Source: Actinomadura sp. OS1-43 (GTDB lineage: Bacteria > Actinomycetota > Actinomycetes > Streptosporangiales > Streptosporangiaceae). From it: a stretch of 32,000 bases of DNA. Shown here piece after piece: positions 2,557-25,388 of this stretch (positions are counted from its first letter, which is position 1; each line of letters begins with the position of its first letter). The stretch is from NCBI RefSeq assembly GCF_030283205.1, contig NZ_JASNWF010000016.1:82018-114017 (forward strand). The letters run 5' to 3'. Under the pieces are notes generated by a model that worked only from the letters and a program-made list of their open reading frames with translations, ran no database searches and was not told the DNA's origin. The translations under genes and the position numbers were made by a program.

Positions 2557-2573
2557 ATACCCCCTAGGCGTAT
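2557..2573. promoter_or_regulatory. CsoR/RicR-like operator half-palindrome box 1 (ATACCCCCTAGGCGTAT)
   Basis: Imperfect dyad TACCC-CCTAG-GCGTA in the divergent 156-bp region between the BNR gene (start 2475) and the MFS gene (start 2632). It is a near copy of box 2, which lies 34 bp downstream. Confidence 0.45.
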
Positions 2574-2590: not shown

Positions 2591-2607
2591 ATACCCCCTA
2601 GGGGTAC
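2591..2607. promoter_or_regulatory. CsoR/RicR-like operator box 2 (ATACCCCCTAGGGGTAC)
   Basis: Inverted repeat TACCCC-CTA-GGGGTA (form TACCC-N5-GGGTA). It ends 9 nt before the GGAGGGA Shine-Dalgarno of the MFS gene. Confidence 0.5.
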
Positions 2608-2631
2608 AGCCGAGTGGAGGGACGGACCGTC

Positions 2632-4050
2632 ATGTCCGCAGACCCGAGGCGGTGGTGGGCGCTGGCCGTGCTCGCCACCGCGCAGTTCATGGTGATCATG
2701 GACACGTCGATCATCGGGGTGGCGCTCCCCGACCTGCAGCGCGATCTGGGCTTCGGCCCGAGCGGGTTGCAGTGGGTGTTCAACGCCTACGTCGTCGCGT
2801 TCGGCGGGCTGCTGCTGCTCGGCGGCCGCCTGTCGGACCTGCTCGGCGCGCGGCGGGTGTTCGCGGCCGGCTGGGTGGTGCTGGTCGCCGGGTCGGTGGT
2901 CGCGGCGGCCGCCGGCGGGGCCGGGATCGAGATCGCCGGGCGCGCCGTGCAGGGCGTCGGGTCGGCGCTGATCGCGCCGTCCTCGTTGACGCTGCTGATG
3001 GCGCTGTTCTCCGCGCGGCCCAAGGAGCTGGCCAGGGCGATGGCGTTCTACGGCGCCGCCGCACCGGCGGGCGGGACGGCCGGGGTGTTCCTCGGCGGTG
3101 TCATCACCGAGTGGCTGAGCTGGCCGTGGGTGTTCATCATCTACATCCCGATCGGGCTGGCGACCCTGGCGCTGGTGCCGGGGTTGCTGCCGGACGTCCC
3201 CGGACGCCGCGCCGGGCTGGACGTGCTGGGCGCGGCGGCGGTGACCGGCGGGCTCGCCCTGGCCGTCTACGCGATCGTCCAGGCGCCCGAGCGCGGATGG
3301 GGTGCGACGGCCACCGTCCTGCAACTCGGCGGCGCGGTGCTGCTGCTGGCCTTGTTCGTGGCGTGGCAGCGGATCGTCCGCAGCCCGCTGATGCCGCTGT
3401 CGGTGTGGCGCACGCGCGGCCTGGCCGGTGCGAACGCGGCGATGGCGCTGCTGGGCGCCGCGTGGATCCCGATGTGGTACTTCCTCAACCTCTACCTGCA
3501 GCAGGTGCTCGGGTACGGGGCGTTCCCCAGCGGGGCGGCGCTGCTGCCGATGACCGCGCTGATGATGGTGCTGATGGTCGGCGTCACCGGACGGCTCATC
3601 GGGCGGTTCGGCACCGGGCCGCTCATCGTCACCGGGCTGCTGGTGCTGGCCGCGGGGCTGTTCGTGCTGTCGACGATCGACGCGGGCGGCGGCTTCTTCA
3701 CCGATGTGCTCCCGGGCTCGCTGGTCTCGGCCGTCGGGATGTCGCTGGTGTTCATCCCGGCCACCATGGCCGCGATCGGCGGTGTCGCCCCGGAGCAGGG
3801 CGGGCTGGCGTCCGGCATCGTCAACACCACCTACCAGGTCGGTTCCGCGATCGGGCTGGCGGCGATGACCGCCATCGCCACCTCGCACGGCGGCGGAGAG
3901 CTCGGCAACCTGGGCGCTCTCACCGACGGGTTCCAGGCCGCGTTCGTCGGCGCCGCCGTCGTGGCGCTGGCCGGTTCCGGTCTCGCGCTGGTGACGCTGC
4001 GGGCCCGGTCGGCGCGCGCGGTCCCCGAGAAGGAGACGGTCGGCGCGTGA
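2632..4050 (+). CDS. MFS transporter, DHA2 (EmrB/QacA-like, 14-TMS) drug/cation:H+ antiporter family
   Basis: The ORF frame runs 2614..4050. ATG 2632 follows GGAGGGA (2616-2622) at good spacing and is preferred over GTG 2614. The N-terminus MSADPRRWWALAVLATAQFMVIMDTSIIGVALPDLQRDLGF and the many hydrophobic helices over ~470 aa are typical of DHA2 MFS exporters. Confidence 0.9.
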   Translation: MSADPRRWWALAVLATAQFMVIMDTSIIGVALPDLQRDLGFGPSGLQWVFNAYVVAFGGLLLLGGRLSDLLGARRVFAAGWVVLVAGSVVAAAAGGAGIEIAGRAVQGVGSALIAPSSLTLLMALFSARPKELARAMAFYGAAAPAGGTAGVFLGGVITEWLSWPWVFIIYIPIGLATLALVPGLLPDVPGRRAGLDVLGAAAVTGGLALAVYAIVQAPERGWGATATVLQLGGAVLLLALFVAWQRIVRSPLMPLSVWRTRGLAGANAAMALLGAAWIPMWYFLNLYLQQVLGYGAFPSGAALLPMTALMMVLMVGVTGRLIGRFGTGPLIVTGLLVLAAGLFVLSTIDAGGGFFTDVLPGSLVSAVGMSLVFIPATMAAIGGVAPEQGGLASGIVNTTYQVGSAIGLAAMTAIATSHGGGELGNLGALTDGFQAAFVGAAVVALAGSGLALVTLRARSARAVPEKETVGA

Positions 4051-4086: not shown

Positions 4087-4113
4087 GGCCTCCGGATTAC
4101 CCCCCGGAGGTTT
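4087..4113 (+). terminator. Possible intrinsic terminator after the MFS gene
   Basis: Stem CCTCCGG (4089-4095), loop ATTACCCC, stem CCGGAGG (4104-4110), followed by TTT. It starts 37 nt after the MFS stop. Confidence 0.4.
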
Positions 4114-4171
4114 CCGGCGGCGGTGATCAGGTACATCGACTGGTGATGGACGCCGGGAACCGGGAGGGGCG

Positions 4172-4513
4172 ATGCCGCCGTACGCCGTGGTCCTGTCGGT
4201 CCTGGGGCTGGTGGGGGCGGTCATCGCGGCCGTCTACGCGGTGTCGTACATGGTCGCGCCGGAGATGGAGGGCGGGCCGTTCCTGTCGGGCGGGCGTCCG
4301 CGCGAGCAAGCGATGTCGCGCTACCACGTCCGCTGGTACGCGGTGACGATGGTGTTCCTCGCCTTCGACATGGAGATGGTCTTCATGTACCCGTGGGCGC
4401 TCGTGGTGGCGTCGGTAGGCGTCAAGGCCGTCGTCGAGATGTTCGCGTTCCTGGTGTTGCTGCTGGTCGGTGTCCTGTACGCGTGGCGCGAAGGGGCGCT
4501 GCGGTGGGTCTGA
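4172..4513 (+). CDS. nuoA: NuoA/ND3-like subunit of a complex I-like membrane module
   Basis: 113 aa with three hydrophobic helices. Signature RYHVRWYAVTMVFLAFDMEMVFMYPW matches the NuoA F-D-x-E...Y-P-W motif. SD-like GGGAGGGG lies just upstream. It is the first gene of a coupled operon. Confidence 0.9.
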   Translation: MPPYAVVLSVLGLVGAVIAAVYAVSYMVAPEMEGGPFLSGGRPREQAMSRYHVRWYAVTMVFLAFDMEMVFMYPWALVVASVGVKAVVEMFAFLVLLLVGVLYAWREGALRWV

Positions 4514-5439
4514 GACGGCGGTTGGAGCGGCCGGCGAAGCACAGCCCGCGCCCGTTCGTGGTGTCGGCGGCCGACGGGACGGGGGAGCGGCTCGCGGTCG
4601 AGGCCGGGTTGCGGCGGCGGGGGTGGCGGGCGGCGGTGTCACCGGCGGAGACGGGTGTGCTCGTCGTGTGCGGGCGTCCGGGGGAGGCGCTGGCGGAGGC
4701 GATCGACGAGGTCTGGTCGGGCATGCCGGGGCCGCGGGCGCGGGTCCGGCCGGACGCGCTGGACGACATCGTGTGGGACGGAACCCGGACGTCTCGCCCA
4801 TCGGGCGAAGTGGAGACGGCCGGTCGAGCGGACGACCGGGACGGTCTGCGGCTCGACGTCCTGCACGTCCCGCTCGGTCCAGTGCTGGCGGACTGGCCCG
4901 CGGGCCTGCGGCTCGACCTGGCGTTGCAAGGGGACGTCGTGCAGGCCGCGGAGGCCGTGATGGTCGACACGGGCGGCGGGTCGTTCTGGGAGGGGCGGCC
5001 GGGGGCGCGCGGGCTCGACGGGCTCGCCCGCTTCTTGCGGGTCGCGGGCTGGGACGACGCGGCGCGGCGCGCCGCCGTTCTGCGGGACGACCTCCTCAGC
5101 GGCAAGGAGATCGGGGAGCGGTTCGACACGTTCGACCGGATGGTCCGGCGTTCGCGGTTGCTGCGGTGGATGACCAGAGGGATCGGGAACCTCACACCGG
5201 AGGCGGCGGAGCGGCACGGCGTCGCGCCGCAGCATGTCGGTGACGTCAACGACCGGTTGCGCGGGCGGCTCCGCGAGATCCGGCTCGCCCTCGACGGCGA
5301 CGACTCGCACGGCCATGCCAGGGCCGAGGCGCTCGTGGCGGTGCTGCCCGAGCTGGTGAAGGGCACCGAGCTGGCGCAGGCCCGGCTGATCGTCGCGAGC
5401 CTGGATCCGGACCTCGCGGCGGTGCCGGCCGATGGTTGA
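4504..5439 (+). CDS. Vestigial NuoB-like + NuoD-like fusion protein (cofactor-less Q-module relic)
   Basis: GTG 4504 overlaps the nuoA stop (GTGGGTCTGA). The listed ATG 4393 would overlap nuoA by 120 nt. Residues 44-81 (AVSPAETGVLVVCGRPGEALAEAIDEVWSGMPGPRARV) resemble the NuoB stretch ..SPRQSDVMIVAGT....MAP..R..YDQMPEPRWVI. Residues 124-152 (LGPVLADWPAGLRLDLALQGDVVQAAEAV) resemble the NuoD N-terminus GPQHPAAHGVLRLxLELDGExVxxAxP. IGNLTPEAAERHGV, GDVNDRLRGRLREIRLAL and the C-terminal LIVASLDPDLAAV resemble the NuoD motifs IGxLSxExAxxxGxxGP, GDxYDRYxVRxEEMRxSL and GSxDIVxGEVDR. These are by-eye alignments only. Confidence 0.7.
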   Translation: MGLRRRLERPAKHSPRPFVVSAADGTGERLAVEAGLRRRGWRAAVSPAETGVLVVCGRPGEALAEAIDEVWSGMPGPRARVRPDALDDIVWDGTRTSRPSGEVETAGRADDRDGLRLDVLHVPLGPVLADWPAGLRLDLALQGDVVQAAEAVMVDTGGGSFWEGRPGARGLDGLARFLRVAGWDDAARRAAVLRDDLLSGKEIGERFDTFDRMVRRSRLLRWMTRGIGNLTPEAAERHGVAPQHVGDVNDRLRGRLREIRLALDGDDSHGHARAEALVAVLPELVKGTELAQARLIVASLDPDLAAVPADG

Positions 5440-6295
5440 GGTGCTCGTCCTCGGGCTGATCGCCGTCGCGGCGGCGTCGTTGGACGCGGTGCTCGCGGGC
5501 GGTCCCGGCCCGGTCCGGGAGGCCGCGCGGTTGCTGGTGACCGAGCGGCGCGCGACGCCCAGCGCGGACCGGCTGCTGACGCGGGCCGGTGCGATCTCGC
5601 TGCCGGTGGCGGCGGCGCTGGCCGCGCTCGTCGTGCCGTTCGGCGGCCACGCCGCGCTGGACACGCGGGTCGGCGTCGTGTGGTTCAACGCGATGGAGGT
5701 CGTCGCGTGGGCGTCGGTCTGGCTGGCGGGATGGGGCGTCAACTCCGCGTACGCGCTGGTCGGCGGGTACCGGTTCCTCGCGCAGGGCCTTGCGTACGAG
5801 CTGCCGCACATGTTCGCCCTCATCACGGCGGCGCTGGCGGCGCACTCGCTGGACCTGCGGGCGATCGGTGCGGCGCAGGACGGGCTGTGGTTCGGGGTCT
5901 GGATGCCGGGGGCGTTCGCGGTGTACCTGGTGTCCGCGCTCGCGATGGCGTTCTGGGGGCCGTTCGAGGCGCCGCTGGGCGCCGACATCGCGGGCGGAGC
6001 GGCGCTCGAACTGTCCGGCCCCGACCGCCTGGTCTTCCTGGCCGGACGGTACGGGCTTCTCACCGTGGCGTCGGCCGTGGCCGTCCCGCTGTTCCTCGGC
6101 GGCGGCGCGGGTCCGCTGCTACCCGCGTGGCTGTGGTCGGCGGTGAAGACCTGCGCCGTCCTGGCGCTGCTGGTGTGGGCGAGAAGGCGGCTGCCCGTCC
6201 TGCGGATGGACCGGTTCATGCAGGTGGCGTGGACGGTCCTCATCCCCGCCGTGCTGCTGCAGATGCTCGTGGTCGCGATCGTCGTCGTGGACTGA
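5432..6295 (+). CDS. nuoH: NuoH/ND1-like subunit (short, divergent N-terminus)
   Basis: The ATG overlaps the upstream stop (ATGGTTGA). GWGVNSAYALVGGYRFLAQGLAYELPHMF, PFEAPLGADIAGGAALELSGPDRLVFLAGRY and RRRLPVLRMDRFMQVAWTVLIP correspond to the NuoH motifs GSNSKYALLGGLRAxAQxISYE, PFDLPEAExELVxGxxxEYSGxxFALFFLAEY and RATLPRxRYDQLMxxxWKxLLP. Confidence 0.85.
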   Translation: MVEVLVLGLIAVAAASLDAVLAGGPGPVREAARLLVTERRATPSADRLLTRAGAISLPVAAALAALVVPFGGHAALDTRVGVVWFNAMEVVAWASVWLAGWGVNSAYALVGGYRFLAQGLAYELPHMFALITAALAAHSLDLRAIGAAQDGLWFGVWMPGAFAVYLVSALAMAFWGPFEAPLGADIAGGAALELSGPDRLVFLAGRYGLLTVASAVAVPLFLGGGAGPLLPAWLWSAVKTCAVLALLVWARRRLPVLRMDRFMQVAWTVLIPAVLLQMLVVAIVVVD

Positions 6296-6305
6296 GGAGG
6301 TTCCC

Positions 6306-6815
6306 GTGACCGTCCTGTTCTGGGTGCTGGCCGTCGCGGCGGTCGCCTTCGGTGCGGCGGTGTTCGCCGTCGGGTCGATGGCGCGCGCGACGTTCGCGCT
6401 GCTCGCGTCGTTCCTGTGCGTCGGCGGCGAGCTGCTGCTGGTGGGCCTGCACTACCTCGGCGTGCTGGTCGTGCTCATGATGATCATGGAGATGCTGGTG
6501 ATGGCGGTCTTCATGATCATGTACATGATGGACCCGGGCGGGCTGATGCCGATGTCGATGGTGCACAACCGGCGCGGCGCGCTGGCCGTCGCGGGGACGG
6601 TGTTCGCGGCGCTGGCCGCCGGGGTGTTCGCGATCCCGTGGCCGCAGCGGCGCGGCGCCGCGCCGCACGACCCGACCTTCGCGCTCGGCCAGTCGATCAT
6701 GGGGCCGAAGATGCTGGTGATGATGGTGATCGGCATCGCGATCCTGGCCACGATGATCGCCACGGTCGTGCTGGCGACCCGGACGGGACGCTACGGCGAG
6801 GACGGTGTGCGATGA
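6306..6815 (+). CDS. nuoJ: NuoJ/ND6-like subunit (unusually Met-rich)
   Basis: GTG 6306 lies 5 nt after GAGGAGG. 169 aa with 5 hydrophobic helices. Assigned from its position between NuoH-like and NuoK-like genes and from general NuoJ topology. Confidence 0.75.
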   Translation: MTVLFWVLAVAAVAFGAAVFAVGSMARATFALLASFLCVGGELLLVGLHYLGVLVVLMMIMEMLVMAVFMIMYMMDPGGLMPMSMVHNRRGALAVAGTVFAALAAGVFAIPWPQRRGAAPHDPTFALGQSIMGPKMLVMMVIGIAILATMIATVVLATRTGRYGEDGVR

Positions 6816-7117
6816 CCCTCCAGGCGTTCCTGCTGCTCGCCGCCGCCCTGTTCAGCGTCGGCCTGTACGGCGCGCTGTCGCAGCAGTCGATCGTGATGCT
6901 GATGATGGGCCTGGAACTGATGATCAACGGCATCGTCGTCGCGGCGGGCGGGTTCTGGCACTGGGTGTCGCCGGGCGCGCCGGACGGCCAGGTCCTCGTG
7001 CTCGTCGCGATCACCGTGATGGCGCTGGAGATGGCGATGGGGTTCGCCGTCGTCACCGCCCTGTTCCGCGCCCGGGACGTGGACATGACCGACGACGCCG
7101 GAGACCTCCGAGGATGA
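6812..7117 (+). CDS. nuoK: NuoK/ND4L-like subunit
   Basis: ATGA start/stop overlap with nuoJ. 101 aa, MTLQAFLLLAAALFSVGLYGALSQQSIVMLMMGLELMINGIVVAAG...AITVMALEMAMGFAVVTALFR. Both conserved membrane glutamates (GLELM, ALEMA) are present. The ORF track lists this frame only as part of 6416..7117. Confidence 0.9.
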   Translation: MTLQAFLLLAAALFSVGLYGALSQQSIVMLMMGLELMINGIVVAAGGFWHWVSPGAPDGQVLVLVAITVMALEMAMGFAVVTALFRARDVDMTDDAGDLRG

Positions 7118-8901
7118 TCGTCGCGCTGGCCGTGACGCCGGCCGCCGCGGGTGCGCTTCTGCTGCTCGCGGGGCGGCGGGCCGATCGCGTGGCACCGGCC
7201 GCCGGGGTCCTGGCCGCGGTCGCGGTGCTGGCACTGGCGGTCGCGGCGGCGGTGACGCGTCCCGTCGCGCGTTTCGCGCTGCTGCCGGGGTGGCCCGGCG
7301 GGCTGGCCGTGGACGGGCTGTCCGGCGTGCTCGTGGTGACGGTCGCGTCCGTCCTGACCGCGATCCTGGTCTTCGCGGCCGCAGGCGGGTACGGCGCGCG
7401 GTTCTTCGGCCTGATGCTGCTGTTCGCGGGCGCGATGCTGGTGACGGTCACCGCGTCCGACCTAGTCCTGCTGCTGATGGGGTGGGAGGTCATGGGCGCG
7501 ATGTCGTACGCGCTCATCGGCTACGAGTGGCGGGAGGCCGAGCCGGTGCGCTCGGCGGACGTCGCGTTCCTCACCACCCGCGCCGCCGACCTGGGCCTGT
7601 ACGCCGCGGCGGGCTTCGCCATCGCCGGGACGCACTCGCTCACGCTCTCCTCACTGACCGGCGCAGCCGAACCATGGCGGGATCTCGCGGCGGGCGGGAT
7701 CGTGCTCGCCGCGCTGGGGAAGTCGGCGCAGCTTCCGTTCTCGTTCTGGTTGTCCAGGGCGATGGCGGGTCCGAGTCCGGTCTCGGCGCTGCTGCACTCG
7801 GCCACCATGGTCGCCGCCGGCGCCTACCTGCTGCTGCGCCTGCATCCTCTGCTCGCGGCGACCGGATGGGCCGGCACGCTCGTCGCCTGGGTCGGCGCCG
7901 TGACCGCGCTCGCAATGGGCGCCGTGGCACTGGCGCAGAGGGACCTGAAACAGCTTCTCGCCGCGTCGACCTGCGCGCAGATCGGGTTCATGGTGCTGGG
8001 CGCCGGCGTCGGTTCCGTCTCCGGTGGGACGGCGCATCTCGTGGCGCACGCGACGGTGAAGAGCCTGCTGTTCCTGTGCGCGGGTGCCTGGCTGACGGCT
8101 CTGGGCACCAAGCGGTTGGACGAGCTGCACGGCGCCGCACGCCGATACCGGGTCGTCGGCGTCGCGTTCGGGGCTGCCGCGCTGGCGCTGGCGGGGCTGC
8201 CGCCGCTGTCGCTGTGGGTGACGAAGGACGAGGTGCTGACGGCGGCCGCAGAACGCTCGCCCGCGCTCCTCGCCGCCGGGATGGCCGCCTCCGTGCTGGC
8301 CGCCGCGTATTCGGCCAAAGCGCTGTTCGCGGTGTGGCGCGGTACGCGCAGCGACGGTCAGGTCGTGCCGTGGCTCGAGCGCCTTCCGCTGGTCGCCCTG
8401 GCGGTCGCGGCCTGCGTCCTCGGCGTGCTCGGGCTGCGCGGCGTCGCCGAAGCCCTGGGGATTCCAGGGGAGACGAAGGTGAGCGTCCTTGACCTGGTGG
8501 TTTCCGGTGTTCTGGCGGTGGTGGCGATCGTCGTGGTCCGGTTCGTGCGGGCCGTGTCGGCGCCCGCGTGGGTGGCCGACTGGCTGTTCCTCGAACGGGC
8601 CGCGAGGGCCGGGATCGTCCGTCCGGTGTTCGCGGTGTCGCGGGCGCTCGCCAGGTTCGACGACCGGGTCGTCGACGGCGCGGTCCGGTCCGTCGCGCGG
8701 GCCGGGCTGCGGACGGCCGACCTGGCCGCACGCGGCGCCGAACTTCGCGTGGACGGAATGGTCGACGGGGTCGGGCGCTGCGCGCGGCGGCTCGCCGGGC
8801 TCGCTCGCCGCCCGCAGACCGGGCTGGTCCACACCTACTACGCGCAGGCGGCGGTGCTGCTCGCGGTGCTCGTCGTCGTCGCCGTGTTGGCCGGGTGGTG
8901 A
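7114..8901 (+). CDS. nuoL: NuoL/ND5-like antiporter-type subunit with C-terminal lateral-helix region
   Basis: ATGA overlap with nuoK; 595 aa. Motifs: LLLMGWEVMGAMSYALIGY, LGKSAQLPFSFWLSRAMAGPSPVSALLHSATMVAAGAYLL, HLVAHATVKSLLFLCAG. The C-terminal FDDRVVDGAVRSVA...RRPQTGLVHTYYA resembles the NuoL HL-helix segment. Confidence 0.9.
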   Translation: MIVALAVTPAAAGALLLLAGRRADRVAPAAGVLAAVAVLALAVAAAVTRPVARFALLPGWPGGLAVDGLSGVLVVTVASVLTAILVFAAAGGYGARFFGLMLLFAGAMLVTVTASDLVLLLMGWEVMGAMSYALIGYEWREAEPVRSADVAFLTTRAADLGLYAAAGFAIAGTHSLTLSSLTGAAEPWRDLAAGGIVLAALGKSAQLPFSFWLSRAMAGPSPVSALLHSATMVAAGAYLLLRLHPLLAATGWAGTLVAWVGAVTALAMGAVALAQRDLKQLLAASTCAQIGFMVLGAGVGSVSGGTAHLVAHATVKSLLFLCAGAWLTALGTKRLDELHGAARRYRVVGVAFGAAALALAGLPPLSLWVTKDEVLTAAAERSPALLAAGMAASVLAAAYSAKALFAVWRGTRSDGQVVPWLERLPLVALAVAACVLGVLGLRGVAEALGIPGETKVSVLDLVVSGVLAVVAIVVVRFVRAVSAPAWVADWLFLERAARAGIVRPVFAVSRALARFDDRVVDGAVRSVARAGLRTADLAARGAELRVDGMVDGVGRCARRLAGLARRPQTGLVHTYYAQAAVLLAVLVVVAVLAGW

Positions 8902-8904
8902 GGC

Positions 8905-10392
8905 GTGCTCTCGCTGGTCGTCTTCCTGCCGCTGGCCGTCGCGCTCGTCCTGCCGGTCGCGCCGCGCCGCGCCGTGCCGTGGACGTGGATCGCGGTCACG
9001 GTCGCCGACCTCGCCCTCATCGTGAGCATGTGGCTCGCGCACGGCACCGGGCCCGGCGTCGCCTACGAGGCGGATGTGCGCTGGATACCGTCCGTCCGGG
9101 CGGGCTACCACGTGGGCTTGGACGGGCTGTCCTTCCCACTCGTCACGCTGACGGCGGTACTGTTCGCCGCCTGCGCCGTCTACTCGATCCGGCAGCTGCA
9201 CCGGGTTCGGGCGTTCGCGATCCTTTTCCTGTTCTTGGAGACGGTCTGTCTGGGATTGTTCGCCGCCCTGGACCTGCTGCTTTTCTTCGTCTTCTTCGAC
9301 CTGTCGATCGTCGGCATGTACTTCGTGATCCTGCTGTGGGGGCACGGCGATCGGGCGGCGTCGGCGCTGAAGTTCTTCCTCTACACATTCCTCGGCTCGC
9401 TGGTCCTGCTGCTCGGATTCATCGGCCTGTACCTGGGCGCGGACCCGCACACGTTCGACATGGTGGAACTGACCAGGCACCCGCCGCTCGCCGGGTCGCC
9501 GGGGCTCGCCGGGCTGACGCTGCTGGCCGTCGGCATCGGCCTCGGTATCAAGACGCCGGTCGTCCCGTTCCACACGTGGCTGCCGCCCGCGCACACCGAC
9601 GCGCCCGCCGCCGGGTCCGCGATCCTTGCCGGGGTCATGCTGAAGATGGGCACCTACGGGTTTGTCCGGATCGCCATGCCGATGCTTCCGGACGCATGGC
9701 GGCGCTACGCACTCGTCTTCCTCATCGTGGGCCTGATAAGCGTCCTGTACGGGGCGCTCGTCGCGCTGGCGCAGGACAATGCGAAACGGCTCGTCGCGTA
9801 CACGTCCGTCAATCACATGGGCTACATCGTCCTCGCACTGGGTGCGGCCGGATACGCGTCCGGCGACGTGGACGCGCGGCGGCTCGCCGTCACCGGGGCC
9901 GTCACGCAGATGGTCTCGCACGGGCTCGTCACCGGCGCGCTGTTCCTGCTGTGCGGCGTCCTGTACGACCGCGCCGGAAGCTACGACATCGGGCGGTTCG
10001 GCGGCATCGCGCGGACCGCGCCCGTCTACTCCGGGATGCTGGCGCTCGCCGCGTTCGCGTCCCTCGGACTGCCCGGCCTGTCGGGATTCGTCGCGGAGTT
10101 CCAGATCTTCGCCGGGACGATCGGCAGCGGCACCACGGCGGCGGCCGTGACCGGCGCGCTCGCCGTCCTCGGCATCCTCGTCACGGCGGCGCTGTTCCTG
10201 CGCGTCCTGCACCGGGCAGTGCTGGGCGCGCCCGGTGAGCTGTCCGGGCAGGTAGCGGACGTGCGGCGGGCCGAACTCGCGGCGATCGTCCCGCTGCTGG
10301 CGCTGTCGGTGCTGATCGGCGTCGCGCCGCGCGTCCTGCTCGACACGATCGAGCCGCTGTCGGCGGCCGTGACCGCGCTGGTCGGCCGATGA
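8905..10392 (+). CDS. nuoM: NuoM/ND4-like antiporter-type subunit
   Basis: GTG start 3 nt after the nuoL stop; 495 aa. Motifs: SALKFFLYTFLGSLVLLLGFIGLY, IKTPVVPFHTWLPPAHTDAPAAGSAILAGVMLKMGTYGF, VAYTSVNHMGYIVLALGA, QMVSHGLVTGALFLLCGVLYDR. Confidence 0.9.
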   Translation: MLSLVVFLPLAVALVLPVAPRRAVPWTWIAVTVADLALIVSMWLAHGTGPGVAYEADVRWIPSVRAGYHVGLDGLSFPLVTLTAVLFAACAVYSIRQLHRVRAFAILFLFLETVCLGLFAALDLLLFFVFFDLSIVGMYFVILLWGHGDRAASALKFFLYTFLGSLVLLLGFIGLYLGADPHTFDMVELTRHPPLAGSPGLAGLTLLAVGIGLGIKTPVVPFHTWLPPAHTDAPAAGSAILAGVMLKMGTYGFVRIAMPMLPDAWRRYALVFLIVGLISVLYGALVALAQDNAKRLVAYTSVNHMGYIVLALGAAGYASGDVDARRLAVTGAVTQMVSHGLVTGALFLLCGVLYDRAGSYDIGRFGGIARTAPVYSGMLALAAFASLGLPGLSGFVAEFQIFAGTIGSGTTAAAVTGALAVLGILVTAALFLRVLHRAVLGAPGELSGQVADVRRAELAAIVPLLALSVLIGVAPRVLLDTIEPLSAAVTALVGR

Positions 10393-11765
10393 ACGAGAAC
10401 CCCGCCGACGTCGCGCCCGAGCTGTGCGTGCTGATCGCCGCCGTCCTCGGCCTGGTCAACGGGCTGTTCCTGCCCCGCACCCGGCAGTGGCGGGTCGCCG
10501 CGATCTGCGCGGCCGGGCTGGTCGCGGCCCTCGTGGTCGCCGCCGTCGACGCGACCCGGCCGGACCTGGTCGTGTTCGACGCGTTCTTCGTCGACCCGAT
10601 CACCCACGTCACCCGGATCGCGGTACTCGGCTCGACGCTGCTGGTCCTCGGCCTCGCCGCCGGACCGGTCCGCGACCATCCGCGGGAGAGCGAGCACTAC
10701 GTCCTGATCCTGCTGTCGGCGCTCGGCGCGATGGTGCTCGGCGCCTCGTCCGACCTGCTCGTCGTCGTCGCCGCGTACCTGCTGGCGAGCATCCCCGCGT
10801 ACGCGCTCGCGGGGTTCGGCAAGGACGCGCCCGGCACGGAAGCGGCGTTGAAGTACTACCTGATGGGCGCGTTCCTCGGCGTCGTGATGCTCGCGGGCGT
10901 CACGCTCCTCTACGGGGTCGGGCGCGGCACCGCTTACGGGACGCTCCGCGCCGGCCTCGCCGACGCGCCGTCGGCGGCGGTGTCCGCAGGCGTCGTCGCG
11001 TTGCTGGCCGGGCTGCTGTTCAAGGCGGGCGCCGTACCGGGACACTTCTGGATCCCCGACGTCACCGAGGGCGCGCCCCCGGCGGTCGCCGCGTTCGTCA
11101 CGACCGTCCCGAAGATCGGTGCGTTCGCCGCGCTGCTGCGGTTCGGTGCCGAGGCCTTGCCGCCGGACGCCGCCGGATGGCCGACGGTCGTCGCGGTGAT
11201 CGCGGCGGCCACGATGACGCTCGGCAACCTCGCCGCGTTCGGGCAGGACAACGTCCGCCGGCTGCTCGCCTACTCCACCGTCAGCCAGGCCGGATACCTG
11301 CTGGTCCCGGTCGCGATGGCGGGCCGGACCGACCTCGCGCAGACCGCGCTGCTGTTCTACGTCGCGGCCTACGCGGTGACGAACCTCGGCGCCTTCGCCG
11401 TCGTCCTGGCGGTCGGCCGCGACGACCTCGCCTCCTACACCGGCCTGCTGCGCGCCTCCCCGCCCCTCGGGCTCGCGCTGGTCGTGTGCCTGCTCGGCTT
11501 CATCGGGACGCCGCCGACCGCTGTCTTCGTCGGAAAGGTCCTGATGTTCGGCGCGGCTCTCGATGGCCACTACGTCTGGCTCGCGGTCGTCGCCGCCGTC
11601 AACACGGTCGCGAGCGTCTTCTATTACCTGCGCTGGATCGTCCCGCTGTTCCGGCGGCCGGACGGCGAGTTCACACCGGCCCGGGGAGCGTCGGCGGTCG
11701 CCATGGTGGCCGCGCTGTTCTCGCTGGTCCTTGGCATCGGCGCCGGGGTCGCGCTCACCGCATGA
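10389..11765 (+). CDS. nuoN: NuoN/ND2-like antiporter-type subunit
   Basis: ATGA overlap with nuoM; 458 aa. Motifs: EAALKYYLMGAFLGVVMLAG, LLFKAGAVPGHFWIPDVTEGAPPAVAAFVTTVPK, NVRRLLAYSTVSQAGYLL. Confidence 0.9.
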   Translation: MNENPADVAPELCVLIAAVLGLVNGLFLPRTRQWRVAAICAAGLVAALVVAAVDATRPDLVVFDAFFVDPITHVTRIAVLGSTLLVLGLAAGPVRDHPRESEHYVLILLSALGAMVLGASSDLLVVVAAYLLASIPAYALAGFGKDAPGTEAALKYYLMGAFLGVVMLAGVTLLYGVGRGTAYGTLRAGLADAPSAAVSAGVVALLAGLLFKAGAVPGHFWIPDVTEGAPPAVAAFVTTVPKIGAFAALLRFGAEALPPDAAGWPTVVAVIAAATMTLGNLAAFGQDNVRRLLAYSTVSQAGYLLVPVAMAGRTDLAQTALLFYVAAYAVTNLGAFAVVLAVGRDDLASYTGLLRASPPLGLALVVCLLGFIGTPPTAVFVGKVLMFGAALDGHYVWLAVVAAVNTVASVFYYLRWIVPLFRRPDGEFTPARGASAVAMVAALFSLVLGIGAGVALTA

Positions 11766-13335
11766 CCGGCAGCTCGATCCAGGACGGGCGTCCGGCGTCG
11801 TGGAAGACGGTCTGCTCCGCGCGCACCATCGACGGGTGGCGGTCGAACCGGGGGAAGTTCGACGAGGCGACCTGCACCCGGATGCGGTGCCCGGCCCGGA
11901 ACGTCTGGCTGGTGGCGGCCAGGTCGATCTCGTGCCGGGTCGCGTCGCCGGGGGAGCGGACGATGCCGTCCAGCACGTTCATCGCCCGCCCGTCCGGCCA
12001 CACGTCGACCAGCTTGGCCGTCCAGTCGGCGCCGGGCGCGGAGGTCGCCGCGTGCAGGACCGCCCGGACCGGCCCGGTGACCTCCACGTCCCGGTCGAGC
12101 ACGGGCGTGGTGAAGACGAGGACGTCCGAGCGCGCCTCCACGGCCCGCTGGTCGCGCGGCCCGACGTTGACCGGGTCGTTCAGCAGCAGGTTGCCGCCGT
12201 GCGTGGGGACGGGGTCGTCCGGGTCGTGCACGAAGCGGGACGGCGACGCGTCGCACTCCGGCGCGTCAGCGGACAGAGAACCGCCAGAGTGCAGGTAGTA
12301 CCGGGTGGTGGTGGCGCCGGGCGGCGGCCATGACTCGGCGTCCCGCCACACGTCGGCGCCCATCGTGAAGTACCGGACCGCCGGCCCGCCGGTGTCGCCG
12401 CGCAGGAACGCGATCTGCGCGGCCTCCAGCTGTGCCATCTGGGCGGACGCCGCGTGCCCGAAGTACAGCTCGCCGACGCCGCCCGTCTGGGACAGGTGGG
12501 ACCACGGTCCGATGACGAGGCGCCCGCCAGGAATGCGCCGGTAGTTCTCCAAGGTGCCGCGCAGGAAGACGTCGAACCATCCGGCGACGTGCAGGACCGG
12601 GACGCCGATCCGGTCGTGCCGCAGCGTCTCCGCGAGATCCGTCCAGTACGAGTCGCGTTCCGGATGGTCGACCCAGTCGCGCCAGAACGGGAACGCGTCG
12701 GCGACGGCGGGGATCTCGCGCAGCGGCAGCGACCGCATCGCCGCGTCGGGATCGGCCAGCACCTTCATCAATGGCCCGAGGCGGGCCGCGCCGCCGTTCT
12801 CGATGTCGTGCACCGCGCCGAGCAGCCCTTGGAGCGCGCCCCAGAAGAACGCCGACCCGAGCGCGAACGCGCCGCCGTGGTACTTCAGCCCATCGTAGAA
12901 GTCGTGCGGGGTCATCGCCGCGACGACGGCCTTCAGCGCGTCCGGGCGCTCGGACGCGAGCTGGAGCGCGCATCCGGCGAGGTAGGAGTTGCCGGCGGCG
13001 ACGACCTCGCCGTTCGACCACGGCTGCACGGTGATCCACTCGACGGTGTCGGCGCCGTCGCGCCCCTCGTCCACCCAGGGCGTGAACTCGCCGTCGCTGT
13101 TGCCCCGGCCCCGGCAGTGCTGCAACACCACGGCCATCCCGGCCCGCAGGCAGCCGGTGACCGGAGCGGCCCGGAACACCGGCTCGCCGTAGGGGCCGCG
13201 CATCAGCACGGTGCGGTGCCGCCCGTCGCCGGCGGGCCGGTGCACGTCCGCGCGCAGGACCGTCCCGTCGCGCATCTCGATCGGCTGGTCCAGGACGGTG
13301 ACGGCCGCGAGCGCGGGACGGTCGAGCTTCGTCAC
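11755..13335 (-). CDS. CocE/NonD family hydrolase (S15 X-Pro dipeptidyl-peptidase-like alpha/beta hydrolase)
   Basis: 526 aa with GTG 13335 preceded by GGAGGGA. Features: IEMRDGTVLRADVHRP...VLMRGPYG, CRGRGNSDGEF, nucleophile-elbow-like GNSYLAG, and a C-terminal beta-sandwich region ending HRIRVQVASSNFPRFDRH, typical of this family. It converges on and overlaps the nuoN 3' end by 11 nt. Confidence 0.85.
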   Translation of the reverse strand: MTKLDRPALAAVTVLDQPIEMRDGTVLRADVHRPAGDGRHRTVLMRGPYGEPVFRAAPVTGCLRAGMAVVLQHCRGRGNSDGEFTPWVDEGRDGADTVEWITVQPWSNGEVVAAGNSYLAGCALQLASERPDALKAVVAAMTPHDFYDGLKYHGGAFALGSAFFWGALQGLLGAVHDIENGGAARLGPLMKVLADPDAAMRSLPLREIPAVADAFPFWRDWVDHPERDSYWTDLAETLRHDRIGVPVLHVAGWFDVFLRGTLENYRRIPGGRLVIGPWSHLSQTGGVGELYFGHAASAQMAQLEAAQIAFLRGDTGGPAVRYFTMGADVWRDAESWPPPGATTTRYYLHSGGSLSADAPECDASPSRFVHDPDDPVPTHGGNLLLNDPVNVGPRDQRAVEARSDVLVFTTPVLDRDVEVTGPVRAVLHAATSAPGADWTAKLVDVWPDGRAMNVLDGIVRSPGDATRHEIDLAATSQTFRAGHRIRVQVASSNFPRFDRHPSMVRAEQTVFHDAGRPSWIELPVMR

Positions 13336-13455: not shown

Positions 13456-14319
13456 CTAGCGGCTTGGGCCGCCGCCGAACCACTCGCCCGCGGTGCGGGC
13501 CGGGGGCGGGGCGTCGCCGGGACGCGGCGCCGCGCGCGACCCGCCCTCCTGCAGCGAGCGCAGCCGTTCCTGCAGGGCGCGGTCGGCGTGGATCTCGTCC
13601 TCGCTCGGCGCCATCGCGATGATGATCAGCAGGGTCGTCGACACGACGGCGATGCCGCCGATGAGCGGCAGCAGGAAGTCGATCGGGTCGGCGCCGCCGG
13701 TCGCGCCCGCGTTCCCGTCCATGGTCACCCGCATGGCCGCCATGCCCGTGTAGTGCATGCCGGTGACCGCGACGCCCATGATCAGCGCGGCCCCGGCCGT
13801 CTCCCAGCTGCCCTTGGCACGCAGGCAGAACCACAGCGCCACCGTGGACGCCACCACCGCGATCACCACCGACAGCGCGACCAGCCCGGGCTGGTAGCCG
13901 ATGTGGCCGGACATCCGCATCGCCGCCATGCCGCTGTAGTGCATGCTCACCACGCCGATGCCCATGATGACGCCGGCCGTGACGATGACCGGCGTCCCGG
14001 AGCCGCCGAAGCCGACGATGAACAGCCCGACCGCGACGACCACCACGGCCGCGAGGCAGCTCAGCAGCGTGATCGGGACGTCGTAGCGGATCTGCATGCC
14101 CGAGATGCTGAAGCCGAGGATGGCGATGAAGTGCATCACCCAGATCCCGGTGCCGCCGATCGCCAGCGCCGCGAGCGCCAGCCACGAGGCGCGCGAGCGG
14201 CCCGTGGACGCGCGGGCGCGCGACGTGCACAGCAGCCCGAGGAACGAGCCGACGAACGACATGAGGTAGGCGCACACGGGGGTCAGCAACCCGTATGAGA
14301 AATGGTGCACGTGGGCCAT
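13456..14319 (-). CDS. Stand-alone MHYT-domain integral membrane sensor protein
   Basis: Three MHYT-type repeats (WVMHFIAILGF, MHYSGMAAM, MHYTGMAAM) across about 7 helices. ATG 14319 is preceded by GGGGGA and is preferred over GTG 14346. A short soluble tail follows, with no recognisable output domain. Confidence 0.85.
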   Translation of the reverse strand: MAHVHHFSYGLLTPVCAYLMSFVGSFLGLLCTSRARASTGRSRASWLALAALAIGGTGIWVMHFIAILGFSISGMQIRYDVPITLLSCLAAVVVVAVGLFIVGFGGSGTPVIVTAGVIMGIGVVSMHYSGMAAMRMSGHIGYQPGLVALSVVIAVVASTVALWFCLRAKGSWETAGAALIMGVAVTGMHYTGMAAMRVTMDGNAGATGGADPIDFLLPLIGGIAVVSTTLLIIIAMAPSEDEIHADRALQERLRSLQEGGSRAAPRPGDAPPPARTAGEWFGGGPSR

Positions 14320-14485
14320 GCGATCCCCCGTGAAGCACGAGACCACTGGTGAGGTGGCCGCATCATAACCGCACTTATCCGGGCAAATTGGGAACCATGC
14401 AGGTATTGGTCCGAAAATCGACCGCCCGTGCGCGGGCGCTCACCCCCCGGAGCGGCCACCGGACGGGCCGCGTGCGGGAGGACGG

Positions 14486-17425: not shown

Positions 17426-18286
17426 TCAGGACTGCGGGGCGGTGCGCCCGTTGGTGGAGCGCCCGGTGGCGGCGCGCAGGGTGACGGCTCGCGCGCCGGT
17501 CAGGCCGAGGACGTCGGCGGCGCGTCCCTGGTTGACGCCGAGGCCGAGCCAGCCGGAGGAGTCGATCCACAGCAGCGGTTCGCCTACGGCGACGCTGCCG
17601 AAGGTCCCCTCGAACGGGACGCGGGCGGTGCGGGACGTCCCGTCTGGAACGCTCCATTCGAGATCGAGGGGAGTGCCCGGCTCCAGCGCCCCGAACGCGG
17701 CCGCGAGGTCGTCGCGCTCCGCGCCCAGCACCAGGCTGCCGAACCGGTCGGTGTACAGCACGGGGACGGTCAGCTCCCCCTCGCGGGCGGCCGCGGCCGG
17801 CAGGTCCAGCGGCAGCGGCTCGACCCGCGCGCCGAGGCCGGCGACGTCGACTCCGGTCGCGACGTGCGCGGCGGCGGGGGAGAAGATGTCGCGGCCGTGG
17901 AACGACGTGGACACCTCCGGCAGCCGGTACGCCGGTTTCTCCAGCGCGTGCGCCCGGACGATGCCGCCGAGGGCCTCCGCCGCCGGCACCAGCAGCCCGT
18001 TGTCCGGCCCGACCAGCACGTCTCCGCGCCCGGTCTCGATCGCCACGGGGCGGCGCGGGGTGCCGACGCCCGGGTCCACGATGCCGACGTGCACGCCGAC
18101 CGGCAGGTAGGGCAGCGCCTGCCGCAGCAGCATCGCGCCCTCCACCACGTCGAACGGCGTGATCTCGTCGCTGAGCACCAACACGGTCGCGTCCGGGGCG
18201 ATCGTGTACACGACCCCGGCGCAGATCGAGGTGTAGGCGGCGCCGAAGTCCGTGGCGATGCTGACGAACGGGCGGCTTCCGGACAT
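17426..18286 (-). CDS. SAM hydrolase / SAM-dependent halogenase family protein (DUF62, SAM hydroxide adenosyltransferase type)
   Basis: ATG 18286 gives MSGSRPFVSIATDFG. Motifs TDFG, VDPGVGTPRRPVA, GPDNGLL and TSFHGRDIFSPAAAH match the DUF62 family. It ends 32 nt upstream of the SBP gene on the same strand. Confidence 0.85.
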   Translation of the reverse strand: MSGSRPFVSIATDFGAAYTSICAGVVYTIAPDATVLVLSDEITPFDVVEGAMLLRQALPYLPVGVHVGIVDPGVGTPRRPVAIETGRGDVLVGPDNGLLVPAAEALGGIVRAHALEKPAYRLPEVSTSFHGRDIFSPAAAHVATGVDVAGLGARVEPLPLDLPAAAAREGELTVPVLYTDRFGSLVLGAERDDLAAAFGALEPGTPLDLEWSVPDGTSRTARVPFEGTFGSVAVGEPLLWIDSSGWLGLGVNQGRAADVLGLTGARAVTLRAATGRSTNGRTAPQS

Positions 18287-18375
18287 GGGCGACCTCGGCG
18301 GGACCTGCGGGAATGAAGGAGAGCAGAAGCCTACCAAGCCGATCTGGTGCCCGAACCTGCGCTTATCCTCCGGGG

Positions 18376-19284
18376 ATGCGCGCCGATTCGCTCGATCCGC
18401 TCCTGCTGCGGACCTTCGTCGCCGTCGCCGACCTCGGCTCGTTCACGGCCGCCGCGGCGGCGGGCGGCTACACCCAGTCGGCGGTGTCCCGGCAGATCGC
18501 GGCGCTGGAGGACGCCTGCGGCGTCGAGCTGTTCGCGCGCGGCGCCCGCGGCGTGCGGCCCACCCCCGCCGGCGAGCACCTGCTCCCGCACGCCCGCGCC
18601 CTGCTGGACCGGCTCGCCGACACGGCCCGCGCGATGGAGGGGCTGCGCCGCCTCGACACCGGGACGCTGCGGCTCGGCGCGTTCCCCACCGCGAACGCGG
18701 CGCTGGTGCCGCGCGCCCTCGCCCGGTTCCGCGAAGCGCACCCCGGCGTGCGCATCGCGCTGCGCGAGGGCACCACCGACCGGCTGCTTACGCTGCTGGA
18801 CGCCGGCGACCTCGACGTCGCGGTCGTCAGCACCCACATCGTCCCTGCGCTGCCCGCCGGCGACCTGGTCGCGCTGCTGGACGACGCGCTGCTCGTCGCC
18901 CTGCCCTCGGGACACCCGCTCGCGGCGCTGCGCCGCGTCCCGCTGGGCGAGCTGGCGGGCGAGGCGTGGATCGTCGCCGACACGCCCGACGCCGTCGCCG
19001 CGCTGCGCGCCCGCTGCGAGGCCGCCGGGTTCGAGCCGCGCACGCCGCTGCGGGTCGCCGAGTGGATCTCCAAGCTGGGCCTGGTCGCCGCGGGCTTCGG
19101 CGTCACCCTCGTGCCCGCGCTCGCGGCGGCGGCGATGGCGCGCGAGGACGTCGCGATGCGCCCGCTGGACCCCGGCCCGCCGGGCCGGACCGTGCACGCC
19201 GCCGTCGGGCGGCACGCGCGCAGGTCCCCGGCGGTCACCGCGTTCCTGGCCGACCTGCGCGCCGCCGCCGCCGAGCTGGGTTAG
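18376..19284 (+). CDS. LysR-family transcriptional regulator
   Basis: ATG 18376 gives MRADSLDPLLLRTFVAVADLGSFTAAAAAGGYTQSAVSRQIAALEDACGVELFAR (LysR HTH) plus a C-terminal substrate-binding domain. It is divergent from the DUF62 gene across an 89-bp spacer. Confidence 0.9.
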   Translation: MRADSLDPLLLRTFVAVADLGSFTAAAAAGGYTQSAVSRQIAALEDACGVELFARGARGVRPTPAGEHLLPHARALLDRLADTARAMEGLRRLDTGTLRLGAFPTANAALVPRALARFREAHPGVRIALREGTTDRLLTLLDAGDLDVAVVSTHIVPALPAGDLVALLDDALLVALPSGHPLAALRRVPLGELAGEAWIVADTPDAVAALRARCEAAGFEPRTPLRVAEWISKLGLVAAGFGVTLVPALAAAAMAREDVAMRPLDPGPPGRTVHAAVGRHARRSPAVTAFLADLRAAAAELG

Positions 19285-20519: not shown

Positions 20520-20610
20520 GGTGCGACCGACGCTAGGGGCCGCCGGGCCATGCCACCAGCGCAGCTTTCGCACAGTAGGCATGCGGCTGCCGCATGGCTC
20601 GGAACCCGTC

Positions 20611-25348: not shown

Positions 25349-25351
25349 GTC

Positions 25352-25388
25352 TTGATATTGCCGTCTCGTAATTTGAGATGCAAATCAA
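25352..25388. promoter_or_regulatory. AT-rich imperfect dyad in the IclR-leuC divergent spacer (candidate operator/promoter core)
   Basis: TTGATATTGCCGTCTCGTAATTTGAGATGCAAATCAA. The outer arms are TTGAT(A)TTGC / GCAAATCAA and the inner arms are TCTC / GAGA. It is the only AT-rich stretch in the 99-bp spacer. Confidence 0.45.

Follow-up and report, generated by a model that had tools for sequence, protein, structure and literature searches.

A partial complex I operon of Actinomadura with a predicted NuoB/NuoD relic and a putative role in proton-driven cation transport

Partial nuoAHJKLMN operons, also called 'Partial NDH-1 operon 2', are known from marine actinomycetes (PMC3314556, PMC4018334, PMC6002675, PMC6676996, PMC8622039). 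They have been catalogued since 2012, when they were proposed as marine-adaptation genes (Penn and Jensen 2012, PMC3314556), and appear again in Ian 2014 (PMC4018334) and, for Kocuria flava, in Sun 2018 (PMC6002675). For sponge Streptomyces, Salinispora and Kocuria, Almeida 2019 (PMC6676996) gave the order as 'nuoA, hypothetical protein, nuoH...nuoN' and reported no homologues of the hypothetical protein in UniProt or PDB; the same study listed the operon for strains of the rhizosphere and for one strain from mine fluids rich in copper. According to a 2021 paper, Streptomyces have nuoA-N, nuoABCHIJKLMN and sometimes nuoAHJKLMN (PMC8622039). Surveys of complex I diversity do not single out the nuoAHJKLMN type. 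Here we analysed an operon of this type in a 32,000-nucleotide (nt) stretch of Actinomadura sp. OS1-43 (contig NZ_JASNWF010000016.1, positions 82,018 to 114,017, forward strand; hereafter the window, G+C content 73%), in which eight same-strand open reading frames (ORFs; 4172-11765, +) encode NuoA, a protein of 311 amino acids (aa) that we call X, and NuoH, J, K, L, M and N.

A preliminary description of this stretch had held that the architecture fits nothing known. The statement stands for characterised systems, and neither an experiment on the operon nor a biochemical characterisation was found in the literature searched; for the cluster itself it was overstated, the operon type having been reported repeatedly for over a decade.

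Gene content, protein X and conservation of the operon

The operon is mis-annotated as an NADH dehydrogenase. Its sequences point to a redox-dead descendant of complex I that probably uses the proton-motive force for secondary transport. All eight reading frames were intact and translationally coupled, with overlaps, ATGA junctions and gaps (Table 1) exactly as first described, and profile searches of Pfam and NCBIfam bore out the seven Nuo homologues. NCBIfam named the three PF00361 proteins NuoL, NuoM and NuoN; NuoL was full length (residues 2-592 on positions 5-611 of 615 of NF005141), its alignment spanning the C-terminal region that is the site of the lateral helix in E. coli NuoL. Every operon score but one fell short of the NCBIfam equivalog cut-offs, which argues for a divergent paralogous set rather than the housekeeping enzyme.

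Searches with E. coli NuoB, CD, E, F, G and I (tblastn, E<=1e-3) gave no match, either in the window or across 80 related loci taken with flanks of ±10 kb, these being the best 80 loci, all from Actinomycetota, of a scan of one genome per species in which at least 312 species carried X. Neither the N-module of complex I (NuoE, F and G; window and 80 loci with flanks) nor a Q-module with N2 cluster, NuoI clusters and NuoD quinone ligands was found, while the seven core membrane subunits were present with their conserved charged axis. The preliminary description had placed a single 311-aa ORF in the nuoB-G slot and noted that nuoI was missing, both of which held; it had also regarded the subunits binding flavin mononucleotide or iron-sulphur (FeS) clusters as absent and the membrane arm plus NuoH as intact, which the searches supported, the arm being under purifying selection.

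X gave no match in Pfam or NCBIfam, and its sequence equals (100% identity) that of an Actinomadura opuntiae protein annotated as hypothetical; its GTG start was backed by an MGLRxRL N-terminus conserved among homologues. A profile of 26 homologues searched against PDB retrieved the NuoB/PSST subunit of complex I structures (E=5.4e-6, residues 35-85), and hhalign placed residues 44-83 of X on E. coli NuoB 87-128, ending just short of the third N2-cluster cysteine. The NuoB-like part stops ahead of the third and fourth cluster-ligand positions, and the NuoB 'CC' motif appears as 'AA' in X when aligned by eye. An AlphaFold2 model of the second domain (predicted local distance difference test, pLDDT, 86.9; predicted template-modelling score, pTM, 0.85) was compared with PDB by Foldseek, and all matches listed were NuoD-type proteins (49-kDa/NuoD, NdhH, HycE, MbsL; best E=7.5e-5). 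Alignment of the X family to the single E. coli NuoCD sequence by hhalign paired the beta1-beta2 region as expected at a score that was not significant (E=0.18), so that it is the fold match that carries the NuoD assignment. In the X family an invariant proline (P132) stands where E. coli NuoCD has the quinone-ligand histidine, H224. The best-conserved stretch of X, DRDGLxLDxLHxPLGPxLxxWPAGL, aligned with the NuoD beta1-loop-beta2 element, one of the loops of the Q cavity (PMC10212512).

The X family has no conserved cysteine (usually one per homologue, none in 6 of 71, one in the window protein) and no conserved Cys, His or Met able to hold a cofactor. X thus offers neither ligands for an FeS cluster nor the residues that bind quinone. 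On sequence and model, X is a predicted fused, cofactor-less NuoB/NuoD relic unable to hold an FeS cluster; with such a protein the complex cannot be an NADH dehydrogenase. A NuoB/NuoD-derived identity of X was not found in the literature searched. One metagenomic homologue (P0426) bears the JGI label 'Ni,Fe-hydrogenase III small subunit', so an automated pipeline has occasionally picked up the NuoB-like domain.

The two domains of X are joined by a variable linker, which is rich in His, Asp and Gly in certain long homologues. A role for it as a metal-binding tail was considered and rejected: the linker holds 0-11 histidines and is almost missing from the window protein, and therefore cannot be essential. 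Actinomadura luteofluorescens carries two copies of X (P0018 and P0089), one short (292 aa, like that of the window) and one long (450 aa), which suggests two subtypes.

A single-sequence search with X returned 1901 hits, the family being annotated only as 'hypothetical protein', and a profile search of 1.84 billion representative proteins returned 1253 clusters at 50% identity, of which 581 had E<=1e-30. The 80 loci came from Actinomadura, Spirillospora, Nonomuraea, Actinocorallia, Nocardiopsis, Streptomyces, Amycolatopsis, Prauserella, Actinophytocola and Plantactinospora, and from metagenome-assembled genomes (MAGs) of Micromonosporaceae, Propionibacteriales and Gaiellales, at least six orders overall; Micromonospora, Actinoplanes, Dactylosporangium and Skermania carry X too. 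Homologues were numerous in Streptomyces and Micromonosporaceae; the published strains of Salinispora and Kocuria and Streptomyces SM17/SM18 were not among the matches listed.

Wherever the contig was long enough, the order A-X-H-J-K-L-M-N was identical across the 80 loci, an arrangement far beyond chance. No ninth gene was conserved across the family in the flanks, which were conserved only within genera (in Actinomadura an XRE-like helix-turn-helix (HTH) protein, ArsR/HTH_20 and MMPL; MFS commonest overall), so the eight genes form a self-contained unit. Nor was any redox gene conserved near the operon in these loci. Ratios of nonsynonymous to synonymous substitution rates (dN/dS), taken against three Actinomadura orthologues, ranged from 0.13 to 0.33 among the seven Nuo genes, and X had values of 0.37-0.45. 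Synteny, low dN/dS and intact frames together show that the operon is clearly maintained by selection.

These data bear on whether the operon might be a decaying or non-functional duplicate of complex I. X is the fastest-evolving of the eight genes, the profile scores lie under the equivalog cut-offs as noted above, and in one locus (L068, Streptomyces lycopersici), the only disrupted operon seen, a transposase-like ORF (12155-12841, -), called IS110-like by reading its sequence, separates nuoH from nuoJ. Set against this are eight intact and coupled frames, a synteny constant across orders, dN/dS below 0.5 for each gene, invariant functional residues and family-specific substitutions fixed in 100% of members. 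Decay is thus very improbable and effectively refuted by the conservation data. The 1.2-kb insert of L068 was also considered as a nuoI gene and rejected, being the IS110-like transposase. Some genomes had two operon copies each: Nocardiopsis sp. TSRI0078 (L052 and L058), Actinomadura sp. CNU-125 (L057 and L075) and the A. luteofluorescens genome mentioned above.

Conserved residues and the methionine-lined module

Residues were surveyed in E. coli numbering over 66-78 orthologues per subunit. In NuoL, E144, K229, H254, H338, K342 and K399 were 100% conserved, and D400 was present in 68 of 71 members. Also kept throughout, or with rare exceptions, were D178 of NuoL, K234, H241, K265, H322, H348 and E407 of NuoM, K217, K247 and K395 of NuoN, and E36 and E72 of NuoK. 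D79 and E81 of NuoA were retained (here D66 and E68, inside a DMEM motif), and the positions of NuoH E157, E228, R148, R293 and K274 were invariant. Two antiporter positions had changed: NuoM E144 was Asp in all members, and the glutamate of transmembrane helix (TM) 5 of NuoN, E133, was Leu in 75 of 75.

Around the former quinone site the pattern was different. The positions of NuoH E216 and Y229 were hydrophobic and fixed across the family, and the Pfam match of NuoH began only at position 45 of the 298 in the profile, with no counterpart to E. coli residues 30-60. The deleted TM1-TM2 loop is the one that holds the ERRxxxxxQxRxGPN motif, contacts NuoB/D and lines the quinone cavity. The alignments indicate a proton-handling axis that is intact and a quinone chamber that is dismantled. 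In NuoJ, the Tyr59 position was Met and a new invariant glutamate, Glu62, stood three residues on in TM3; Mrp and MBH carry an essential cation-binding Glu at the position of complex I Tyr59, in a NuoJ-like TM3 (PMC7419157).

Of two hypotheses in the preliminary description, a redox-independent cation/proton transporter derived from complex I is the one favoured here. The other, a spare membrane arm docking a peripheral arm encoded elsewhere, is disfavoured, since the operon encodes its own cap for the docking surface and its NuoH lacks the loop contacting NuoB/D. In its broader form this alternative has the arm and X recruiting a module encoded elsewhere, either canonical NuoB-G/I or an unrelated dehydrogenase, and so serving as an alternative proton-pumping arm, by analogy with the alternative NdhD/NdhF sets of cyanobacteria. 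Operon-bearing actinomycetes do have a full nuoA-N and often nuoABCHIJKLMN (PMC8622039, PMC3314556, PMC3765725), an exchange of subunits has been suggested for nuo2 of Streptomyces (PMC3765725), and the best-conserved stretch of X, corresponding to the NuoD element that faces NuoH, could still transmit a signal. X, however, fills the position of NuoB/NuoD and would have to be displaced before a canonical Q-module could dock, and besides the NuoH TM1-2 loop the NuoA loop residues contacting NuoB/D are deleted or changed. With no conserved redox gene near the operon in the 80 loci and no conserved cofactor-holding residue in X, we regard a remaining redox role as improbable.

Methionines conserved in at least 90% of members numbered 29 in NuoA/H/J/K (670 aa) against 12 in NuoL/M/N (1548 aa); NuoJ alone had 16, only two of them common to E. 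coli. Overall methionine content was 10.7% in NuoJ versus 3.3% in E. coli NuoJ, and about 2% in NuoL/M/N. The invariant methionines stood beside the channel carboxylates, in the motifs DMEM (NuoA), MMIMEM (NuoJ TM3), ALEMAMG (NuoK) and NAME (NuoH), and filled the TM3-4 loop of NuoJ (MYMMNPxGLMPMxMxHN), where canonical NuoJ of solved structures has about one. This loop is located at the junction of the two arms (PMC10212512). The family combines a Mrp-like gain of a TM3 carboxylate with an unusual thioether lining. A methionine-lined NuoA/H/J/K channel was not found in the literature searched.

Copper genes, candidate operators and the transported ion

Genes of the csoR/copZ/copA set or DUF305 genes lay within 10 kb of the operon in 10 of the 80 loci, representing six genera. 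Copper-type P1B ATPases above the TIGR01511 cut-off were directly divergent from nuoA in two Nocardiopsis loci (L058 7139-9298, -; L063 7094-9436, -); a complete csoR-copZ-copA operon was directly divergent from nuoA in Prauserella, with one shared box; csoR-copZ-copA stood 2-5 kb upstream in two Amycolatopsis loci; copZ, copA and DUF305 accompanied a locus of Actinomadura sp. CNU-125; and csoR or DUF305 alone occurred in Nonomuraea, A. soli, S. salinarius and a Pseudonocardiales MAG. The Nocardiopsis ATPases have a His-rich N-terminus (HSGHSGHEHHGAHHGDG...) in place of a CxxC metal-binding domain, and one of the two loci (L058) holds a second, CopA-like ATPase and csoR further upstream.

Two further proteins were seen near the operon. 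A conserved secreted protein of about 300-370 aa with a Met/His-rich N-terminal region adjoins copZ and copA in four loci (L067 6352-7260, L078 5656-6576, L057 834-1772, L058 5877-6989); in three of these the sequence begins with MNT(A/T)..., resembling a signal peptide, and the protein has no clear Pfam family, giving only a weak YtkA-like hit. A membrane protein with three MHYT repeats is encoded near the 3' end of the operon in the window and near the operon in about 10 other Actinomadura loci. The MHYT domain has been proposed as a copper-coordinating gas sensor, and this neighbour could be another weak tie to copper.

The promoters of csoR, copZ and P1B-ATPase genes in the related loci carry the palindrome TACCC-N5-GGGTA, which matches the CsoR/RicR type of operator, as in the ricR promoter (TACCCCGCTGGGTA; PMC3944814). 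Three candidate boxes with at most two mismatches were observed in the window, against 0.06 expected, one of them perfect (0.01 expected per 32 kb; Table 1). Over the loci plus the window (1.6 Mb), 17 perfect boxes were counted against about 0.5 expected from shuffles. In 19 of 81 loci the 300 nt preceding nuoA contained a box with at most one mismatch; for 19 control palindromes the number of such loci was 0-8 (median 0). A perfect box preceded nuoA in L062 and in L071, the latter having no cop gene nearby. In L001, L037 and L070, orthologues of the MFS gene that precedes the operon in the window (81-91% identity) accompany the operon in three different arrangements, and every one of them has a perfect box; by this association the MFS gene is probably a member of the same putative copper-responsive unit as the operon. 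No paper linking the operon to copper, whether through csoR/copZ/copA, CsoR-type operators or boxes such as those of the window, was found in the literature searched.

Between the MFS gene and nuoA, a bipartite upstream element was also recognised (Table 1), whose GATCAGGT core precedes nuoA in 37 of 81 loci and whose left part overlaps the degenerate CsoR-like box of the window. It may be a promoter of a non-sigma-70 type; scans of the window for sigma-70 promoters and terminators were uninformative, and no Rfam RNA family was detected anywhere in it. Many Actinomadura loci (L002, L003, L006, L008, L009, L011, L013, L015, L019, L029, L053 and others) have a near-palindrome, TACCCCGGAGGGGCA, over the nuoA ribosome-binding site, at -15 from nuoA, which is absent in the window. 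This near-palindrome may act as an operator, or else as an RNA hairpin hiding the Shine-Dalgarno sequence.

The secondary-transporter reading draws on the homology to and logic of Mrp, the intact proton axis, a gradient as sole energy input and the carboxylate in NuoJ TM3. Protons would run down their gradient through NuoL/M/N, and the central charged axis would couple this flow to outward cation movement via the NuoH/A/J/K module, which corresponds to the Na+ path of Mrp and through which we infer that the ion passes. X would do no more than cap and seal what was once the quinone cavity, perhaps also providing the cytoplasmic entry.

The choice of the ion is the weakest step of the interpretation. 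The leading, still tentative, candidate is Cu(I), or possibly Ag(I), as suggested by the methionine lining around carboxylates, the csoR/copZ/copA linkage and the candidate CsoR-type operators. In the copper version, the old quinone chamber, closed over by the NuoB/D relic and by the NuoJ loop rich in Met and His, would serve as the cytoplasmic entry for the metal. The metal would then follow the methionine-lined 'E-channel' of NuoH/A/J/K, driven by a proton flux through the three antiporter-like subunits, and CsoR would control expression. That this amounts to a new class of metal transporter, a proton-driven Cu(I)/Ag(I) exporter derived from the complex I membrane arm, is on these grounds possible and somewhat doubtful.

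Several points weigh against proton-driven copper export. About 65 of 81 loci have no copper gene or perfect box nearby, and in the window the box next to nuoA is degenerate, the perfect one going with the MFS gene further upstream. Of the 19 near-perfect boxes that precede nuoA, 14 are one and the same Actinomadura sequence overlapping the ribosome-binding site and are therefore not independent. Across whole loci the control palindrome TCACC is as frequent as TACCC, so that the whole-locus count is not unique and the count upstream of nuoA is the more specific test. CsoR-family repressors sense persulfide, Ni/Co or aldehydes too. The methionine enrichment could be purely structural, and the loss of the NuoN TM5 glutamate may weaken coupling. 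The E-channel of complex I is reported to be dry on both sides and without exit (PMC10212512), so an outlet for the cation is not evident. Finally, the literature ties the operon to marine and osmotic habitats, pointing to Na+.

The same redox-dead machine could indeed move Na+ (or K+) as a Mrp-like antiporter for adaptation to salt or alkaline pH, an idea close to the marine-adaptation proposal of earlier papers; we consider it unlikely, if less so than any redox role. The homology to Mrp and the NuoJ TM3 carboxylate, close to the cation-binding Glu position of Mrp and MBH, speak for it, as do the reports, for Salinispora, Streptomyces and Kocuria, of the operon in marine or hyperosmotic isolates and of its absence from close terrestrial relatives, the two copies in Nocardiopsis sp. 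TSRI0078 and a CPA-type Na+/H+ exchanger directly upstream of the operon in L071. However, soil genera (Actinomadura, Nonomuraea, Streptomyces, Micromonospora) have abundant members of the family, which is hence not marine-specific, and Na+ transport leaves the copper-gene linkage and the CsoR boxes unexplained. Methionine is a poor ligand for Na+, yet it is specifically enriched along the putative path, and the NuoN TM5 Glu, whose MrpD counterpart helps bind Na+ (PMC7419157), is Leu.

If the redox-dead transporter works as proposed, it would be a natural 'uncoupled' complex I arm in which the disputed link between quinone site, E-channel and antiporters could be studied without electron transfer, and it would mean that complex I can evolve back to a secondary transporter, the reverse of the accepted route from Mrp to complex I. 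If copper were its substrate, Gram-positive actinomycetes, antibiotic producers included, would possess a second, ATP-independent copper export route, and a gene set annotated as NADH dehydrogenase and cited as a marine-adaptation marker would take on a new meaning. At the least, thousands of 'hypothetical proteins' could be annotated as a NuoB/NuoD-derived cap subunit.

Other features of the window and comparison with known systems

Table 1 Features of the operon and its surroundings in the 32,000-nt window
Feature	Position	Strand	Sequence, match or remark
Candidate CsoR/RicR-type box, palindrome-like	2558-2572	+	TACCCCCTAGGCGTA
Candidate perfect TACCC-N5-GGGTA box	2592-2606	+	TACCCCCTAGGGGTA; 8 nt before MFS gene
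DHA2-like MFS efflux transporter	2614..4050	+	Pfam MFS_1, E=5e-49; TIGR00711, 215.9 bits, just below cut-off
Candidate degenerate CsoR-type box	4098-4112	+	TACCCCCCGGAGGTT; 2 mismatches, ~60 nt upstream of nuoA
Upstream element	4098-4145	+	GGAGGTTTCC-N10-GATCAGGTA; 30-75 nt before nuoA; also in L001, L010, L002, L004 and others
NuoA-like, 113 aa	4172..4513	+	Pfam PF00507, E=3.5e-25
Protein X, 311 aa	4504..5439	+	GTG start at 4504
Junction overlap nuoA/X	4504-4513	+	GTGGGTCTGA
X, NuoB-like domain (residues ~15-85)	4546-4758	+	Profile and hhalign
X, variable linker (residues 86-110)	4759-4833	+	
X, predicted NuoD-fold domain (residues ~111-305)	4834-5418	+	AlphaFold2 model and Foldseek
NuoH-like, 287 aa	5432..6295	+	Pfam PF00146, E=6.9e-48; TM1-TM2 loop deleted
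Junction overlap X/nuoH	5432-5439	+	ATGGTTGA
Operon gap, 10 nt	6296-6305	+	
NuoJ-like, 169 aa	6306..6815	+	Pfam PF00499, E=3e-11
NuoJ Met-rich TM3 and TM3-4 loop	6468-6569	+	VLMMIMEMLVMAVFMIMYMMDPGGLMPMSMVHN
NuoK-like, 101 aa	6812..7117	+	Pfam PF00420, E=8e-16; channel glutamates E35 and E73 kept
ATGA junctions	6812-6815, 7114-7117, 10389-10392	+	
NuoL-like antiporter subunit, 595 aa	7114..8901	+	Pfam PF00361, E=2e-53
Operon gap, 3 nt	8902-8904	+	
NuoM-like antiporter subunit, 495 aa	8905..10392	+	PF00361, E=1.7e-62; TIGR01972, 463.8 bits, above cut-off
NuoN-like antiporter subunit, 458 aa	10389..11765	+	PF00361, E=7.9e-49; TIGR01770, 315 bits; without TM5 glutamate
MHYT-domain membrane protein	13456-14346	-	Three MHYT repeats
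S-adenosylmethionine (SAM) hydroxide adenosyltransferase (SAM_HAT)	17426-18442	-	
Dehydrogenase/RidA fusion	19281-20663	-	
Aconitase-family (LeuC-like) ORF, 745 aa	24608-26845	+	Pfam match from residue 287
ORF of high third-position G+C (GC3)	24635-25384	-	Overlaps 5' extension of LeuC-like ORF

Downstream of the operon, a SAM_HAT gene was syntenic in 19 loci, nearly all Actinomadura (for example 12072-13094 in L024), with no obvious functional link to the operon. The fusion listed in Table 1 unites a NAD-binding domain of the 3-hydroxyisobutyrate/6-phosphogluconate dehydrogenase type with a C-terminal RidA/L-PSP domain, which is unusual. Because of where its Pfam match begins, the LeuC-like ORF probably has its true start much further downstream; the high-GC3 ORF on the opposite strand overlaps this spurious extension and may be a real gene.

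Among known systems, the published partial nuoAHJKLMN operons share with the present one the gene order with a hypothetical second gene and are patchy in Actinomycetota. They form an extra copy beside a full nuo operon in Streptomyces and Salinispora (PMC8622039, PMC3314556). The papers describing them are comparative genomics only, leave the second gene unassigned and speak of a proton pump of complex I and a tie to seawater, whereas here the host is a soil Actinomadura and the second gene is identified.

With complex I the operon has in common the seven membrane subunits in canonical order, a full-length NuoL and the central Lys/Glu/His axis, and profile searches rank NuoL/M/N/H above the subunits of Mrp or of hydrogenases. 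It differs in having no N-module, NuoC or NuoI and in the shrinkage of NuoB and NuoD to one cofactor-less protein, and further in the deleted NuoH loop, the NuoJ change of Tyr59 to Met with its new Glu, the NuoN change of TM5 Glu to Leu and the Met-rich NuoA/H/J/K.

The 11-subunit NDH-1/Fpo complexes and Streptomyces nuo2 (nuoA2,B2,H2,I2,J2-N2, with nuoD2 elsewhere) are, like the operon, extra nuo copies without N-module. Unlike it, they retain NuoB and NuoI (FeS subunits in complex I) as well as a NuoD copy, and so remain electron-transfer enzymes. Identity of the operon with nuo2 (SCO4599-4608) was accordingly rejected, since nuo2 keeps nuoB2 and nuoI2.

MBH, MBS, MBX, FHL and Ech resemble the operon as reduced relatives of complex I with a NuoH-like subunit and NuoB/D homologues, and MbsL and HycE match X in fold. 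They differ by retaining FeS clusters, a catalytic NuoD-type subunit and NuoC/NuoI homologues, and by a different arrangement of the antiporter modules. CusA, of the resistance-nodulation-division (RND) family, is a Cu(I)/Ag(I):H+ antiporter of Gram-negative bacteria, driven by the proton-motive force, with a methionine relay and a charged proton relay in a tripartite system. The export of thiophilic cations would make it a functional analogy to the operon, with no homology.

The Mrp antiporters (CPA3) may be regarded as the closest functional analogue. Mrp models score far below those of NuoL/M/N/H/A/J/K on the operon proteins. Mrp has no NuoH, NuoA or NuoB/D remnant, possesses MrpB/E/F/G and no methionine lining, and carries in MrpC a His where NuoK of the operon has a Glu. 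Like the proposed transporter, however, it is redox-independent and is built on NuoL/M/N-, NuoK- and NuoJ-like modules with a carboxylate cation site in the NuoJ-like TM3 (PMC7419157).

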